IMG/VR virus record: IMGVR_UViG_2913147268_000006
Location: 1-39,374 of that record
Source: a virus
Taxonomy: Duplodnaviria > Heunggongvirae > Uroviricota > Caudoviricetes
Strand: one strand, 5' to 3'
Length of the DNA: 39,374 nucleotides
A program made the position numbers and the translations under genes. Under the pieces are notes generated by a model. That model saw only the letters and a list, made by a program, of their open reading frames with translations, was not told the DNA's origin and did no database searches. The number at the start of each line of letters is the position of its first letter. Positions within the stretch are counted from its first letter, which is position 1. Shown in pieces: positions 8,034-26,530 of this stretch.

Positions 8034-9933
8034 ATCGCCTGAATGGAGAATACCCCACATCGTGCGTGATTTTCATCAGGGGATCGGCTTTGCCCGGTAC
8101 ATCAATTATCTTCATGCCTGGCGGAGCATTCTCGAACGTGACTTTCAGTTCGCTGTGCTGTGTCATGGAAGAAGATGGATTCAACAGCGGAACATTGGGT
8201 TTGTACTGACTCAGGCTGGCCTGATACTGCTCGTACTCTTTACGATCAAAAAAAGGCGTCCAGTCTGAAGCCAGAAACAGCCCTTTATTATCCAGCCAGT
8301 TAACTGTATCTTCAGGAACAACACTTTCCAGAGTATCTTTAACCGGCTCATACATCAGGGTTCCCAGAAAACCATATACCCCGGCCTTCCCGATAAAGCC
8401 GCGGCCTTTCCCCATCAATCCCGTTTCTGCCGACACCTTCCCCAGCGTACGCATCTCTCTGGTCACTGCGGTAATGGATTTGGTAACGTCAGCAACCCAT
8501 TTGGTTGTCATAAACAGGGCGATCGCTTTCAGAACAGTTTCCCATCCCCCCATCGCCTGCGCCGTTTCATCCACCACGCGCCAGACTTTTTTTATGACAG
8601 GACCTACGGTTTCCCAGTTATCAATAATGAGGTAAGCGGCACCGACCAGAAGAGCAATCAGACCCTTAGCAGGCGTCATATTCATCACACCGCCGAGAAC
8701 TTTCATGATTCTGGACAAAGAGCCTGCAGCGGCCCCCACTGTCAGTAAAGCCAGACCGATTTTAGCAATGGTCTTAACGAGCTCCGGGTTTTCACGGACA
8801 AACGTTCTCACTTCCTCAAGGAGCGGTTTTACCGCTTCAAGACCATCATTAACCTCAGGAAGAAACGTTTCCCCCAGAGTGGAAGAAATGGCATCAAGTT
8901 GATTTTGCAGAAGTAAAAGCTGGTTTTCCGTCGTCGCTGCCCTCGAAGCATATTCCTTCTGCATCGAACTGCCATACTGCTGGGAATCCGCAACCCGCCT
9001 GAAGTTGGTACGCAACAAATCAAGGTTAGTCAGCAGAGGTGCTATCGCGCCCAGAGACTCTTTCCCGAACAGGGCATTCAGCACAGCTGCCTGTTTTTCT
9101 TTAGGCACTTTAGCCATCGCATCCAGTACAGACAGCATGGTTCCCCGGGCATCTTTCTGCATATCAGCAGCTAATTTCTTCGGATTGATCCGCAGAAAAC
9201 GTAATGCCTGTTTCTGCGATTTTGTCGCTGAATTTCCCGCGGTCAGGGAAAGCATGAAGTTCTTGATCCCTGTGGCGGCAATTTCTGACTCCACGCCCAT
9301 CCCGGCAATGGTTGCCCCCATTGCCGCGATTTCGCCGGAAGCCACACCTGCAACACCACCTAAAGGACCAATACGCGTAACAATATCGGAGATTTTCTTC
9401 GCATTCGCCGGGCCGGTATTACCAAGGTAGTTGATTTTGTCAGCCAGCCCAGCCACTTCATCCTGCGTCATATTAAACGCAGTACGCCACTGGGCCATCA
9501 TCTGCCCGGACTCTTCAGCCGTGGTATCAAAGGCCACGCCCATCTTCACCGCATCAGTGGCAAACTGCATCAGTTCATCACGTGCAATCCCGGCCTGACC
9601 GCCAGCCGCCACAATTTCCGCGATCCCGTCTGCAGACATGGGAAGCTCAGTAGACAAAGCGCGTACCTGCTCCGTCATGGCCTTAAACGCATCCGGCGTA
9701 TCCAGACCGTCCACCACTTTGCGGACATCAGCCATCTTCGATTCAAGGGTGATGGCTGATTTTACAGGGAGTGCCAGTGCCCCCATTATTGCAGTACCCG
9801 CCCCGGCAGCGCCCAGAGCAAGGCTGGAGACTTCTTTCTGAAACCCCTTAAGCTGACGCTGCATACCTTTAAGCGGGCCGGACAGCCTGTCAACGGCGGT
9901 GATGATGGCTTTCAGCTGAAAATTATCAGCCAT
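8032..9933 (-). CDS. Tail tape measure protein
   Basis: 633 aa, Ala/Gly-rich with predicted hydrophobic segments; between tail chaperone and baseplate genes. Confidence 0.8.
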   Translation of the reverse strand: MADNFQLKAIITAVDRLSGPLKGMQRQLKGFQKEVSSLALGAAGAGTAIMGALALPVKSAITLESKMADVRKVVDGLDTPDAFKAMTEQVRALSTELPMSADGIAEIVAAGGQAGIARDELMQFATDAVKMGVAFDTTAEESGQMMAQWRTAFNMTQDEVAGLADKINYLGNTGPANAKKISDIVTRIGPLGGVAGVASGEIAAMGATIAGMGVESEIAATGIKNFMLSLTAGNSATKSQKQALRFLRINPKKLAADMQKDARGTMLSVLDAMAKVPKEKQAAVLNALFGKESLGAIAPLLTNLDLLRTNFRRVADSQQYGSSMQKEYASRAATTENQLLLLQNQLDAISSTLGETFLPEVNDGLEAVKPLLEEVRTFVRENPELVKTIAKIGLALLTVGAAAGSLSRIMKVLGGVMNMTPAKGLIALLVGAAYLIIDNWETVGPVIKKVWRVVDETAQAMGGWETVLKAIALFMTTKWVADVTKSITAVTREMRTLGKVSAETGLMGKGRGFIGKAGVYGFLGTLMYEPVKDTLESVVPEDTVNWLDNKGLFLASDWTPFFDRKEYEQYQASLSQYKPNVPLLNPSSSMTQHSELKVTFENAPPGMKIIDVPGKADPLMKITHDVGYSPFRR

Positions 9934-10017
9934 GCTTCATCTCCTCATTTATACGGACGGCCTCTGCCTCCAGATCAGCAAAGTGGGAAATAGCCGTCCT
10001 GCGAAGTTCAAGGGGGT

Positions 10018-10341
10018 TTAATTTCCAGAACCACGCGACATTGTAGAATCGCTTCCGGAGGTCTCTTCCGTCTCCAAGCCGGTAAAAAAACGCATTACAA
10101 TCATGCCTGCCTTGAAAATATCCAGCTTCGTCATCTGCGCTGCAGACGAGCGCGGGATCCCGGCCAGAAGCGGGATATATTTCAGCGCCACCTGACTGTC
10201 CATTTTCATACCACCATCAGGCGAAACAGAGAAAGGGAACCCCAGCGCCTCAATCTCGTCATACGTAGGCTCACGTATTTCCAGCACATGCAGTGTTTCT
10301 TTGTGGGCGATGATCGGTTTTTTAAGTACAAGCTCAATCAC
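10018..10341 (-). CDS. Tail assembly chaperone-like protein (Mu gp41 position)
   Basis: 107 aa; position between tail tube and tape measure. Confidence 0.5.
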   Translation of the reverse strand: MIELVLKKPIIAHKETLHVLEIREPTYDEIEALGFPFSVSPDGGMKMDSQVALKYIPLLAGIPRSSAAQMTKLDIFKAGMIVMRFFTGLETEETSGSDSTMSRGSGN

Positions 10342-21826: not shown

Positions 21827-22162
21827 TTACTCCTTAGAGCCACTAAACTTATTACCGATTACTCGCATTGCAGCTCCACGAATGGCATCAACACCGATCA
21901 GCCCAACGCCACCACCAATGGCAACAGAAAGCGATTTAGGCCATCCGACATACTCAAGCGCGGATGCAAAAGTCAGCGTCAGAGCACCACAGAGCAAAAT
22001 CTCGAGCGTTTTTCGCTTCCAGCCACCACCTCCGCCAAAATAGGCGATACGCAAACCAGCCATAACGATCGACATAATCACTGCCCCCAGCGGGGTGTCT
22101 CCACGCCACCAGCTCTGGAACAACTCCAGCCAGTCCGGCCAAGTATTTGGGTTATGAGGCAT
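21827..22162 (-). CDS. Holin (three predicted TM segments)
   Basis: 111 aa; hydrophobic segments; immediately upstream of endolysin. Confidence 0.7.
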   Translation of the reverse strand: MPHNPNTWPDWLELFQSWWRGDTPLGAVIMSIVMAGLRIAYFGGGGGWKRKTLEILLCGALTLTFASALEYVGWPKSLSVAIGGGVGLIGVDAIRGAAMRVIGNKFSGSKE

Positions 22163-22207
22163 TTGTAGTTATCTCTCACCTGCGATTATTTGCGGGTGCT
22201 GTGTTGG

Positions 22208-22234
22208 AAATAAAAAGGCCACCCGAAGGCAGCC
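22208..22234 (-). terminator. Intrinsic terminator downstream of cargo ATPase
   Basis: Minus-strand hairpin ggctgcc-UUCG-ggtggcc followed by UUUUUAUUU. Confidence 0.5.
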
Positions 22235-22258
22235 TGATTTAATTATTCACATTAATCG

Positions 22259-23650
22259 TCACTTAATAGGATTTGGTTTTATGTCGTCAAGCCAGTCGTT
22301 ATCACCTCTTAGCTTGGCTACTCGTCCTTCAACATTAGTTAACGGTTTATAAGCAGAGTATTTGCCTATAGCCCTAGCAGAATGCTCTCCAGCAACACGA
22401 TAATTTTGGAAGTCCAACTCAAGTCCATGCTGCTCCGCTCTCATTCGAATATAACCACGAAGCATGTTTTCTCTAAATCGAAACCAAGATGGACGATTCC
22501 CTAAAGCAGGGATGATGATGCATCCAAATGTCGGTTTCTTCAATGCATTGAACTTTCGCTCAAACGTGGATTTATCTAAAGGTGTTACATCAAGCGATTT
22601 GCAAATTTTAACGTACGATTCTGATATATGAGTCTTATGTCTGGTCAAATCAGCCATATCGGACATAGCCCAAAGAATATGCTTATATGACTCATCACGT
22701 CCCTCTGTTGCATCCGTGTAACTTTGCCTTAAAGTTTCCGAGACTGAATCAATTGCATCATTTAACCCTTTAATGAAAAGGTTGTAATCAACAGAGCTGT
22801 ATTCACGTATTGAGCTTTGACATGTTAAAAGGATTTTTTCACAAATAAGATGAATGTAGTTCGGGAACCCGTCACTAAGACCCGCAATTTTATAGCGGAC
22901 AGAATCATCGACAGTCAGGCCAAACTCATCGAAAGCATTATCAATTATTTGAAAACGACCATTCCATGGTAAACTATCGAGATGTACCTGATGTATTTGT
23001 CGCTCACTTGATTTATGCCCTCCGATTAAAGTAACGAGAGAATCACCAATCCCCGTAAAAATTAATTTTACTTCACACGCCTGATCACCAAGTTGTTTAA
23101 TGAGTGATCCAAACTTTTGTCGTTCTTCATCAGAGTCAATTTGGTCAAACTCATCGATAACTATATAAGGAATCTTTGAGTGAACTTTAGTTAAAAATTG
23201 CAACGCCCGAACGGCTGCAGAAACTGAGTCAATTTTCAGTTCTGGATAATTATATTTTTGATTTTGACCAGCATTGATACCACCAATTCCAGCCACATTT
23301 AAGCCAAAGCTCCATCCCTGTGTATCGATTTTCTTATCCTGAGGTGTGCCTCGCAAAATAATGTCATTCATGACACTTGAAAAAGTGGATTCTTTCTCGC
23401 AGCCAACCAAAATAGGTTCAGCATCTTCCTGCAGCTTAAAAGCAACAGTTTGCGCTAAGGATGTCTTTCCTACTCCGCGATCACCATAAATGAAAGCATG
23501 CCGACCTGTAGCATAAAGCGCCAATTCGAGATCGGTTACATGTTTTTCACGTCCAAATAACAGTTCCATAGAAACAACTGGACCCGTTGGTCGCAAAACT
23601 TTATGCAGTTTATGCATAAAGTCTCGCAAAGAAAGACCTCCACAGAGCAT
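22259..23650 (-). CDS. P-loop ATPase (AAA-like) with uncharacterised C-terminal domain; cargo gene between Q and holin
   Basis: 463 aa; Walker A GDRGVGKTS, Walker B YIVIDEFD; AGGAGA SD 8-9 nt before ATG; AT-rich. Confidence 0.7.
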   Translation of the reverse strand: MLCGGLSLRDFMHKLHKVLRPTGPVVSMELLFGREKHVTDLELALYATGRHAFIYGDRGVGKTSLAQTVAFKLQEDAEPILVGCEKESTFSSVMNDIILRGTPQDKKIDTQGWSFGLNVAGIGGINAGQNQKYNYPELKIDSVSAAVRALQFLTKVHSKIPYIVIDEFDQIDSDEERQKFGSLIKQLGDQACEVKLIFTGIGDSLVTLIGGHKSSERQIHQVHLDSLPWNGRFQIIDNAFDEFGLTVDDSVRYKIAGLSDGFPNYIHLICEKILLTCQSSIREYSSVDYNLFIKGLNDAIDSVSETLRQSYTDATEGRDESYKHILWAMSDMADLTRHKTHISESYVKICKSLDVTPLDKSTFERKFNALKKPTFGCIIIPALGNRPSWFRFRENMLRGYIRMRAEQHGLELDFQNYRVAGEHSARAIGKYSAYKPLTNVEGRVAKLRGDNDWLDDIKPNPIK

Positions 23651-23659
23651 TTTTATTCT

Positions 23660-23700
23660 CCTGCATTTTTTTCGAAAACTATAACATCATTCTTTTTGGC
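23660..23700 (-). promoter_or_regulatory. Putative promoter (extended -10 TGtTATAGT) upstream of ATPase; could equally be the late promoter pR'
   Basis: Extended -10 near 23678-23692 on minus strand; -35-like TTGCCA is spaced too closely (13 nt) to count. Confidence 0.3.
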
Positions 23701-23717
23701 AAGCCTTTCCTAAACGC

Positions 23718-23745
23718 AAAAACCCGCACAATGGCGGGTTCTTAC
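23718..23745 (-). terminator. Intrinsic terminator downstream of Q
   Basis: Minus-strand hairpin aacccgc-cattgt-gcgggtt followed by UUUGCGUUU. Confidence 0.5.
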
Positions 23746-23789
23746 TATTATGTTGCTCAGTTCGCTTTTCGTCCCGAGCTTATCACAAT

Positions 23790-24368
23790 TCAAGCACTTT
23801 CTTGCTCACTTTGCAATTTAAATCTGTCGCTATTTGTGCCAAACGCATCACATAGTGGAGCGTACAGGAGCGATTCGGCCAAACTTATCCATGTGTCAAC
23901 TCGGCGGCGACAGGTAATGAGCGCCCAGTCAGGATGTTTAATATGAAGCTCATTGGCCATTTGCAACTTGCTCTTACGCAGACAATACCGGCCAACAATC
24001 ACACCGTATAGAGAACGGTAATCATTATTCATCAGCACCGAGGCGATCACACCGTCAATCTTCAGGCCTTCATCGTCCGAGCAAAACGCCAGACTACTTT
24101 TGTTTTTACTGTTGAGTATTTCGCGCAAATAAGCTTCGAGCTCTGGTTTCGTAATGCCTGACTTTTTCATACGGCGCAGCGCATCGTTGATTGCAGTTTT
24201 GGTAATTTTGCTGGATACAAGCAGTTGGTTAAACATGTTACCGCTAGTCCCTCCACTGATATAAGACCAACGCCCCCACATGCGGAGCTTCCCCTGAACC
24301 CAGATACTTTCCAGAGTACGAAGACGAACCATTTCACCCGTTTTGCCAATTTCAGAAGGATTAATCAT
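23790..24368 (-). CDS. Late-gene antitermination protein Q-like
   Basis: 192 aa; pattern resembles Q family of phage 82 / QuuD type; located directly upstream of lysis region and downstream of DUF968 gene. Confidence 0.6.
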   Translation of the reverse strand: MINPSEIGKTGEMVRLRTLESIWVQGKLRMWGRWSYISGGTSGNMFNQLLVSSKITKTAINDALRRMKKSGITKPELEAYLREILNSKNKSSLAFCSDDEGLKIDGVIASVLMNNDYRSLYGVIVGRYCLRKSKLQMANELHIKHPDWALITCRRRVDTWISLAESLLYAPLCDAFGTNSDRFKLQSEQESA

Positions 24369-24382
24369 TTAGAGTTCTCCAC

Positions 24383-25375
24383 TTACGCCAGCACGCCAAT
24401 TGCCAGCGCACGATCAATAAAACGAAATATCAGCTCCAACTGGGAGCCATACTTCTCTTCAAATACCACGGTATCCGCATGCAGCTCGTCGTGATGCTTT
24501 CTGCACAAAGGCAACACAAAGAGGTCATGCGCTTTTGTACCCATTCCACCCTGACCGTGACCTATCAGGTGGTGGGCATCATCAGCAGGCTTTCCACAAC
24601 ATGCGCACGGCTGCGTCTTAACCCAGCGCGTGTACTTTTCATTAACCCAGCGGCGACGTTTTGGGCGTAACATAAAAGACTCCGGCGACTCCGGATCCAC
24701 TTTCAGTACCAGCACCTTTTTCGCTTTATCCTGGATGATGCTGGTGGCAGGAACTGAAGGCACAAGGTCACTTTCCCGGGTGACAGATGGCACAACAGGC
24801 TTCGGTAATCTCAGTGCCTTACGGGCTGCACTTTCCGGTAAGGCATCCGCCAGGTCATTACGAATCAGCCACCAGCACAGTTCCGGCATTGTCACAACGT
24901 GACTATCATCAAAACCGAGATCCCGACGCACAACAGACAACACCCAGCGGGCACAGTTATCCGTTGCCATTGATTCCAGCCGTTCCGTGAACTGATCGCG
25001 CAGCTGGTTATCGCAGTGCCAGCACAACACCATTGCGCCGGCACCATAACGGTGAATGACGGTTTCACTGTGGTGATAATCGCCGTGCGGCCACTGGCAG
25101 GATTTAACATGGCGCAGTAACCAGTCAGACAATGCGCCAGCGCCACCAGCAGCACGAATCACTCGTTCGTCGCTGAAAAATGGCAGTAATGATTTATCCT
25201 CCGCCAGCGGCTGGCGAACGGCAGGAACGACCCCGGACGGCAGATTACGCATGCTTTTCGGTTCCGGCTCCACCAGTACCCGGGTATTGTGGAATACCGG
25301 CATGGATTCACGGCCCGGCTTAACGATCACCAGCCCGAGTTCCGGTACCAGAACAGGTCGAAGTAATACCCGCAC
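24383..25375 (-). CDS. DUF968 protein (YdfU-like, HNH-like Cys/His motif)
   Basis: 330 aa; CACCGKPADDAHHLIGHGQGG motif; conserved partner upstream of Q in Qin-type prophages. Confidence 0.8.
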   Translation of the reverse strand: MRVLLRPVLVPELGLVIVKPGRESMPVFHNTRVLVEPEPKSMRNLPSGVVPAVRQPLAEDKSLLPFFSDERVIRAAGGAGALSDWLLRHVKSCQWPHGDYHHSETVIHRYGAGAMVLCWHCDNQLRDQFTERLESMATDNCARWVLSVVRRDLGFDDSHVVTMPELCWWLIRNDLADALPESAARKALRLPKPVVPSVTRESDLVPSVPATSIIQDKAKKVLVLKVDPESPESFMLRPKRRRWVNEKYTRWVKTQPCACCGKPADDAHHLIGHGQGGMGTKAHDLFVLPLCRKHHDELHADTVVFEEKYGSQLELIFRFIDRALAIGVLA

Positions 25376-26189: not shown

Positions 26190-26345
26190 TTACTCCTCAG
26201 GTTCGTAAGCTGTGAAGACAGCGACCTCCGTCTGGCCGGTTCGGATTCGTACCTCGCAGAGGTCTTTCCTCGTTACCAGTGCCGTCACTATGACGGTTAA
26301 ACAGATGACGATCAGGGCGATTAACATCGCCTTTTGCTGCTTCAT
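26190..26345 (-). CDS. hokD: Hok family type I toxin (HokD/RelF-like)
   Basis: Hand translation gives MKQQKAMLIALIVICLTVIVTALVTRKDLCEVRIRTGQTEVAVFTAYEPEE (51 aa), which I recognise as HokD; below track threshold. Confidence 0.85.
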   Translation of the reverse strand: MKQQKAMLIALIVICLTVIVTALVTRKDLCEVRIRTGQTEVAVFTAYEPEE

Positions 26346-26530
26346 AGCCTGCTTCTCCTTGACCTTTCGGTCCGTAAGAGGCTAATCTCTATGTGTCGCA
26401 TAGATATGGCCTCAGATTAATGTTAAGCGTCTTGCAGGACGCGTAATGTTAACTGGGGCTTTTCTCTATCTGCCTTTTGGTGTTCATGCCTGAGACAGAT
26501 AGCCTCAAGCACCCGCAGTTATTCTACTTA
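26346..26530. promoter_or_regulatory. hok mRNA leader with expected antisense Sok region and short mok-like frame
   Basis: Leader shows the conserved GCUUGAGGCU...CUCA and GAUAGCCUCUUAC...CAAGGAGAAG elements of hok mRNAs; the only upstream ATG-initiated frame stops after about 12 codons. Confidence 0.4.

Follow-up and report, generated by a model that had tools for sequence, protein, structure and literature searches.

The question raised by this locus is what a solitary ATPase of 463 residues is doing between the antiterminator and lysis genes of an Escherichia coli prophage. The stretch analysed (IMG/VR record IMGVR_UViG_2913147268_000006, 39,374 nucleotides, here called the window) is an entire SfV/Qin-like prophage and is identical to one inserted at tRNA-Ser, with mtfA and the yersiniabactin island next to it, in E. 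coli of sequence type 131 (ST131). The original prediction for this DNA had proposed the ATPase gene as lysogen-expressed cargo, possibly for defence, in the slot between the antiterminator gene Q and the holin gene. It is well supported that the gene is optional single-gene cargo, or a 'moron', in a variable slot running from the Q terminator to the holin, and likewise that its product is an AAA+ protein of the ORC/Cdc6-STAND clade, made up of a nucleotide-binding core, a lid and a winged helix only. Judged from sequence and predicted structure, we suggest as a tentative reading, one that falls a little short of an even chance, that the protein takes part in mobile-element conflict, probably by keeping other phages out of the lysogen.

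The open reading frame (ORF) starts with ATG and encodes Walker A (GDRGVGKTS, residues 56–64) and Walker B (YIVIDEFD, residues 162–169) motifs, and both these and the ribosome-binding site ahead of the gene are as had been predicted. The protein matches the phrog_6841 profile nearly end to end (6e-103, residues 13–452 against profile positions 13–463 of 470), a family left without an assigned function in PHROG. The prediction that the gene is AT-rich also holds, its G+C content being 36–41%, compared with approximately 51% for the lysis genes and 52–58% further upstream. In E. coli it is rare, being found in 56 of 5426 complete genomes, in all of which it is at least 99.6% identical. The protein encoded by the allele in an Enterobacter prophage is 91% identical, with all domains constrained, and because the ratio of nonsynonymous to synonymous differences (pN/pS) is 0.07 with synonymous sites saturated (pS 0.78), the gene is functional. 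It is real, intact cargo.

The slot lies where it had been placed, behind a Q gene that matches DUF1133 (2.9e-88) and Phage_antitermQ (35.5 bits against a cut-off of 26) and ahead of a lambda-family holin gene, which is followed by genes for a GH24 lysozyme and then a spanin. In all four aligned phages conservation extends through the 3′ end of Q and the terminator behind it, with homology stopping just past the T-run, and it is directly after this Q-module terminator that the cargo begins. Past the T-run lie the ATPase gene in the E. coli and Enterobacter phages, an unrelated 249-residue gene in FAM21845 and nothing before the holin in GF60, where a tRNA-like stretch was rejected by ARAGORN. 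In SfV the cargo is orf47 and a DNA methyltransferase gene in the order Q, terminator, cargo, terminator, S, the same layout in the same slot, although the proteins are unrelated to the ATPase. GF60, FAM21845 and SfV all carry the same Q allele, each with the slot empty or differently filled. Optional presence between conserved flanks and a deviant base composition are thus both seen here, as expected of a moron. In Stx phages, Stx is carried as cargo in the same lambdoid Q-to-lysis slot; the slot marks cargo and says nothing of function.

Both of the terminators said to bracket the gene were found, one after Q and one after its own stop codon, but they are features of the slot and not the gene's own. 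The Q-proximal terminator is a slot feature because it is conserved with Q whatever cargo follows, or none, and the holin-proximal one is part of the holin-upstream module because it is common to SfV, where it follows the DNA methyltransferase gene; the SfV match reaches position 22222, under the terminator annotated in SfV upstream of S. At the genome loci of the family, a terminator is found within 130 nt downstream of 6 of 74 ATPase genes as against 93 of 898 other ORFs, which rules out a gene travelling with its own terminator. As downstream terminators are no commoner in the family than elsewhere, the promoter–gene–terminator unit that had been proposed is local to the slot and no property of the gene, and what stands of it is a candidate extended −10 element.

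The TG-n-TATAGT of this element is retained in the Enterobacter allele although the surrounding bases differ. A promoter of the gene's own is modestly supported, because the −10 element and the ribosome-binding site are kept in that allele despite coding DNA that is only 78.5% identical. By contrast with this coding DNA and its saturated synonymous sites, the intergenic DNA between Q and the ATPase gene is 89% identical between E. coli and Enterobacter (window 23620–23800 against 9850–10030 of the Enterobacter locus, L002); it would appear either to be constrained or to have been swapped more recently than the gene. Within the 3′ end of Q the scan called a late promoter of lambda-like type (TTGGCA-16-TAAATT, 23842–23815), but as its −10 is not kept in the Enterobacter allele it was not assigned as the late promoter. 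The hairpin behind Q is most simply explained as a terminator that is overridden by Q, and the ATPase would therefore be the first late gene transcribed on induction rather than a gene expressed in the lysogen only. The gene is probably expressed in two ways. A weak extended −10 promoter, shielded from the Q module by the Q terminator, would serve in the lysogen, and after induction Q-antiterminated read-through would reach the ATPase as first late gene.

The core of the protein is recognised by the Pfam model AAA_16 with 39.8 bits, above the cut-off of 32.6, and contains an LFGRE motif, K62 of Walker A, D166/E167 of Walker B, the sensor-1-like T199/G200 and R217, which lies at the base of strand 5. 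Across 51 homologues neither GDRGVGK62T nor VID166E167 varies, which gives the Walker signature of an AAA+ protein, and R217, immediately ahead of the strand formed by residues 219–224, is invariant as well. The roles given to R217 and the other residues are assigned by position alone. With the catalytic residues intact an active ATPase is to be expected, and the residues of the protein fit the hallmarks described for ORC/Cdc6 (PMC12839542). The position of the insert after strand 2 matches the 'helix-extension-helix' of ORC/Cdc6, with a helix at 90–101, the extension at 102–142 and a second helix at 143–156; residues 106–133 have a predicted local distance difference test (pLDDT) score below 50 in the model. 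In the homologues the insert is 37–45 residues long, with a mean identity of 14% as against approximately 50% elsewhere and a pN 3–5 times as high as in the remainder of the protein.

Behind the core, the helical part of the lid spans residues 229–315 in the model, and its G-x-P sits where the GDAR of the Cdc6 sensor-2, with its arginine, would be; by inspection this is STAND-like. The winged helix has H-E-H-H-E-E topology with a pLDDT of about 90 or more, and alignments with Cdc6/Orc1 and with the archaeal structures 2fna and 2qen span the domain. The C-terminal region of approximately 250 residues, which had been put forward as a possible separate sensor or effector, is instead the lid and winged helix of the ORC/Cdc6-STAND module, as seen from the model and structure comparison. 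Outside the module there are only 30 residues before the core and 55 after the winged helix. The tail has a short helix and a motif, Y-x-P-L ... E, that is specific to the clade, and distant relatives align only to about residue 412. No enzymatic effector, repeat sensor or partner gene was found for the ATPase, and a fold search of BFVD returned generic AAA+ matches only.

Table 1. Coordinates of the ATPase gene, its domains and the elements that flank it in the window (pLDDT, predicted local distance difference test score; pN, nonsynonymous differences; pS, synonymous differences).
Feature	Position	Strand	Evidence or remark
Lambda-family holin, downstream slot boundary	21827..22162	−	Pfam Phage_holin_3_1 2.6e-27; RefSeq annotation
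Intrinsic terminator between ATPase stop and holin	22207..22235	−	Scan and fold: −13.1 kcal/mol, z −2.5
ATPase coding sequence	22259..23650	−	ORF list; RefSeq WP_021562676.1 'ATP-binding protein'; phrog_6841; pN/pS 0.07
C-terminal tail, residues 408–463, mostly disordered	22262..22429	−	Model, tail alignment
Winged-helix domain, residues 321–407, invariant W327, R337, Y346, E394, R398, G399	22430..22690	−	
Lid/helical bundle, residues 229–320, invariant G261-x-P263 and H267	22691..22966	−	Model, secondary structure, invariant columns
AAA+ nucleotide-binding core, residues 30–228	22967..23563	−	Pfam AAA_16, invariant columns, model pLDDT >90
Hypervariable, length-conserved insert after strand 2, residues 102–142	23225..23347	−	Model, alignment, pN
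AGGAGA ribosome-binding site	23657..23662	−	6 nt before ATG; GGAGAAT in Enterobacter allele
Candidate extended −10, TG-T-TATAGT	23678..23686	−	By inspection; without properly spaced −35
Intrinsic terminator of Q module, tR′-like hairpin and U-run	23716..23745	−	−18.6 kcal/mol, z −4.5
Q-type antiterminator (DUF1133/Phage_antitermQ), upstream slot boundary	23790..24368	−	Pfam; RefSeq annotation

The archaeal PF01637 ('ATPase_2') proteins SSO1545 (PDB 2fna) and PABY2304 (PDB 2qen) match the protein structurally at 16% identity. The ATPase misses the PF01637 threshold (24.7 bits against 33.2) and many of its homologues carry precomputed PF01637 hits; the family is adjacent to PF01637. As we know of no function for SSO1545 or PABY2304, the match names a fold and not a function. 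The canonical STAND immune NTPases (Avs/AVAST, bNACHT and NB-ARC/NLR) were rejected as a home for the protein, which has neither an N-terminal effector nor a C-terminal repeat sensor and gives no TPR, WD40, LRR or effector hit in Pfam. The nSTAND1 model extends over residues 29–332 with 22.4 bits against a cut-off of 27.1, with the lid G261-F-P263 invariant, while Avs3a matches only 7 of the 51 homologues at E values of at least 0.0016 and the structural scores for NLRs are lower than for ORC. In BREX, ATPases of the ORC/Cdc6-like kind serve as scaffolds or sensors (PMC12839542). BrxC, however, has 1200–1300 residues with extra domains whereas members of this family have about 450, and BrxC and BrxD belong to multi-gene operons with PglZ, a methyltransferase or a helicase, whereas the ATPase genes are solitary; none of the BREX models of PADLOC matched the ATPase or its homologues. 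A precedent for a single prophage P-loop ATPase that gives broad resistance to tailed phages with no obvious effector is GiPD474 of Salmonella Gifsy-1, which is spread across prophages of the Enterobacteriaceae (PMC12724215). GiPD474 comes from an immunity region and has a ParA/MinD-like fold (AAA_31), which excludes identity with the present protein; the two share only the P-loop. HepS (PMC13043305) is a HEPN nuclease and unrelated.

A profile search over 1.84 billion cluster representatives found the family in 4940 clusters at E≤1e-3 and 957 at E≤1e-30. Among the best 150 clusters the representatives are approximately 410–465 residues long, or fragments, with a single stretch of match in all but one fragment, which has two, and no added or fused domain. 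Members occur in Enterobacterales, Vibrionaceae, Pseudomonas, Alpha- and Betaproteobacteria and Acidobacteriota and, at 25% identity, in the actinobacteriophages Kevin1 (of Mycobacterium) and Cashline (of Gordonia). No paper was found on the WP_021562676.1 protein or its family, nor one linking PF01637 or PF13191 to phage defence, and the accessible part of the DefensePredictor supplements contains no entry for WP_021562676 or WP_002211751 and no relevant PF01637 entry. Nucleotide-binding switches of the ORC/STAND clade are known from mobile elements; the solitary, effector-less and uniformly ~450-residue variant is undescribed. The family is uncharacterised, and it moves between prophages, plasmids and defence islands.

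The surroundings of the homologues bear this out. The protein is a single P-loop NTPase, as had been predicted, and no conserved neighbour or partner gene was found across 79 genome loci and 80 viral (IMG/VR) loci. The commonest neighbour cluster in the genome loci is a serine recombinase (13 of 79, in 8 of these within 1 kb), followed by tyrosine integrases, cI-type repressors and phage replication proteins. In the viral loci the recurrent neighbours are DUF968 (14), cI-type repressors (13), DUF1133 Q (11) and the lambda holin (9), and therefore at least two classic lambdoid cargo sites are used, the pre-lysis region and the immunity region. In Vibrio parahaemolyticus prophages the gene lies directly 3′ of DUF968, in the variable stretch ahead of the holin, while in a prophage of Edwardsiella ictaluri it stands between cI/HipA_2-DUF3037 and xis-int, in prophages of Providencia and Pseudenterobacter it adjoins the integrase gene, and in a metagenomic element it lies at an integrase-proximal border, with left flanks that vary. 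Outside phages, one homologue in a Pseudomonas island neighbours Gabija GajA/GajB and a DEAD helicase, and a full-length relative with 44% identity is found on pMT1 of Yersinia pestis CO92 (66212–67603 of NC_003134.1, locus L099), near a Phd/RelE toxin–antitoxin pair; 63 Yersinia plasmid records matched. The relative in Kevin1 (cluster N), gp30, is encoded between lysis and integrase in a central variable region that the authors of the Kevin1 study single out as where to seek prophage-mediated defence, expecting such genes there.

A PADLOC scan covered 237 neighbours of at least 200 residues within 5 kb at 48 loci. It matched Kiwa KwaA, Ppl, PDC-M66A/B, RmrA, SNF2-type DpdE/ZorD, PD-T4-6 and MADS components, together with components of type II, IIG, III and IV restriction–modification. 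An estimated quarter to a third of the 48 loci have a known defence gene within 5 kb, a figure drawn from totals per family without a matched control.

Several of these neighbours are of interest in their own right. The DUF968 protein of the window, encoded upstream of Q (24383–25375, minus strand), bears an HNHc_6 nuclease-like domain, and DUF968 is the commonest neighbour of the ATPase in viral contigs even for alleles only 43–48% identical; we read this co-occurrence as a common slot position and not a functional pairing. A small serine recombinase gene lies less than 1 kb from the ATPase gene at eight loci, mostly of Alphaproteobacteria (L034, L052, L056, L069, L047, L057, L062 and L042), with a gap of 45–175 bp in four of the eight and convergent orientation in three, and may be a route by which the gene moves. 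The HipA_2 kinase and DUF3037 pair of the Edwardsiella loci (L082–L084, 5570–7122), between cI and the ATPase homologue, is likely to be another cargo or defence pair of that immunity region. The prophage of Enterobacter sp. kpr-6, which holds the closest relative outside E. coli, also encodes a Kiwa KwaA homologue (9e-89) and a protein with a DpnII/MboI-type restriction endonuclease domain, 3–5 kb upstream of the ATPase gene (L002, 4487–6718).

A role in mobile-element conflict is suggested because the gene is optional mobile cargo, the module is intact and solitary, the sequence is strongly conserved outside one variable surface insert and the positions of the homologues are recurrently those of accessory conflict genes. 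An anti-phage role for the family is plausible. Beyond the intact ATPase module, we infer each step of how this might work. The protein would be an ATP-dependent switch in which the fast-evolving insert that follows strand 2, the winged helix or both read a cue supplied by the invader, for instance DNA, a phage protein or an intermediate of replication. The cue would then lead to ATP-bound oligomerisation through R217 as arginine finger. In the absence of an enzymatic effector, oligomerisation itself would be the simplest action, so that the assembled complex would be the effector. It might occupy the DNA of the invader or block it, at replication, helicase loading or packaging, or else titrate a factor from host or phage. 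Assembly on DNA would be akin to the coating or marking of DNA by ORC, MuB or TnsC.

A more specific form of this proposal, which we consider a long shot, is effector-less immunity. Here a minimal ORC/Cdc6-like module would assemble ATP-dependently on the DNA of an invader or on replication intermediates and thereby prevent origin firing, the loading of helicase or packaging, with the insert setting which invaders are recognised. Protection would then be achieved without a nuclease, protease, NADase or pore, by an 'origin-recognition mimicry' unlike known STAND, BREX and abortive infection systems, across about a thousand protein clusters.

Several results weigh against a role in excluding phages. 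No defence model in PADLOC 2.0 or NCBIfam 20.0 matches the protein beyond the P-loop, the best match being mad8 (2e-4, residues 46–79), for which the MADS preprint gives no domain description; among the 51 homologues mad8 reaches 8e-8 and PDC-S01 1e-5 in PADLOC, DS41_1 and IteA match at the P-loop only and far under their cut-offs, and membership of a known anti-phage family was rejected for the protein and the homologues alike. At most of the 48 loci, the scan found none of the known defence genes within 5 kb. The pN/pS of the insert stays below 1, so positive selection was not detected there. The extended −10 on which expression in the lysogen would depend is a motif, present as had been predicted, but a sigma-70 scan, which requires a −35, called no promoter for the gene. 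The killing or blocking step is conjecture, as the protein has no recognisable effector. Finally, the position behind the Q terminator predicts strong late expression, which would fit the lytic cycle of the phage equally well.

This last point leads to the alternative that survives best, though we regard it as unlikely, namely that the protein serves the phage itself. It would be synthesised in bulk during the phage's own lytic growth, where it might help to replicate or package DNA, remodel nucleoprotein of the host or neutralise the defences of the host or of a rival. Such a late or counter-defence function would account for the site of the gene immediately behind the Q-module terminator and for the recurrence of alleles of 43–48% identity in the DUF968/Q-to-lysis region of other lambdoid prophages. 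It is also consistent with the lack of a toxic effector domain and with the presence, within approximately 1–4 kb of the pMT1 relative, of the anti-restriction-type genes for a DNA methylase and ArdA. However, closely related phages do without the gene, so it is dispensable, and the homologues near cI, int and xis and in the Gabija island are not at sites for late lytic helpers. No anti-defence family was matched, in scans that used no dedicated anti-defence library.

It seems quite improbable that the protein binds DNA to maintain or regulate mobile elements, with a part in partition, transcription or the control of replication or excision, in the manner of Orc1/Cdc6 or MalT-type proteins. 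Its fold is nearest to Orc1/Cdc6 and DNA-loading AAA+ proteins and includes a winged helix, some relatives are named 'DNA-binding protein' in their source annotations, and recombinases and integrases are the commonest neighbours. Moreover, the relative on pMT1 and those of Pantoea (L015) and Intestinirhabdus (L017) lie directly after parA-parB on the same strand; this upstream pair was rejected as partner genes of the ATPase, being the parA-parB of plasmids. Yet the gene keeps no fixed place with respect to any core module, and because the prophage encodes its own replication genes, DnaT-like/O-type and P in the RefSeq annotation, the ATPase would be dispensable for its replication. Identity with an Orc1/Cdc6 initiator was rejected, as the model (TIGR02928) gives 35.6 bits against a cut-off of 181.3, over residues 29–115 only, and the sensor-2 arginine is replaced by G-x-P; unlike Orc1/Cdc6, the protein is encoded by dispensable cargo that is not origin-linked.

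That the protein is a relic or solo relative of the target-selecting ATPases of transposition (TnsC, MuB, TniB and IstB), moving with or assisting recombinases, is very improbable, as TniB gives 15.4 bits against 22.4 (residues 148–206 only), no conserved transposase partner was found at the 79 genome and 80 viral loci, and by structural score the protein is closer to the archaeal PF01637 ATPases and to Orc1/Cdc6. To our knowledge, TnsC and MuB lack a winged helix.

Elsewhere in the prophage, a second AT-rich, cargo-like gene (20169–20777, minus strand, 38% G+C) lies between the spanin gene and the HNH/terminase genes and encodes a 202-residue DUF2441 protein of unknown function. Rfam matches on the minus strand (26343–26514) and the plus strand (33921–33972, 34206–34282 and 34307–34394) correspond to the sok antitoxin, partner of the annotated hokD, DicF, isrK and C4 antisense RNA, small RNAs typical of the early regions of Qin/Rac-type prophages. 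In strain DA33137 the integrase gene of the same prophage is annotated as frameshifted by RefSeq (L001, 35235–36285), and the ST131 prophage may therefore be excision-defective in at least some strains.

If the ATPase does serve defence, it would be a widespread single-gene addition to the immune repertoire encoded by prophages, present in pandemic E. coli ST131 and, as the more distant relative on pMT1, in Y. pestis, and it would be relevant to phage therapy against ST131. Were it instead to serve the phage or plasmid that carries it, it would still be a DNA-handling factor of ORC-like type, so far uncharacterised, from bacterial mobile elements. In the case of defence, a nucleotide-binding module on its own, of the kind that ORC/Cdc6 and NLR-type immune proteins share, would protect a cell without an attached effector, which would bear on how such switches evolved.

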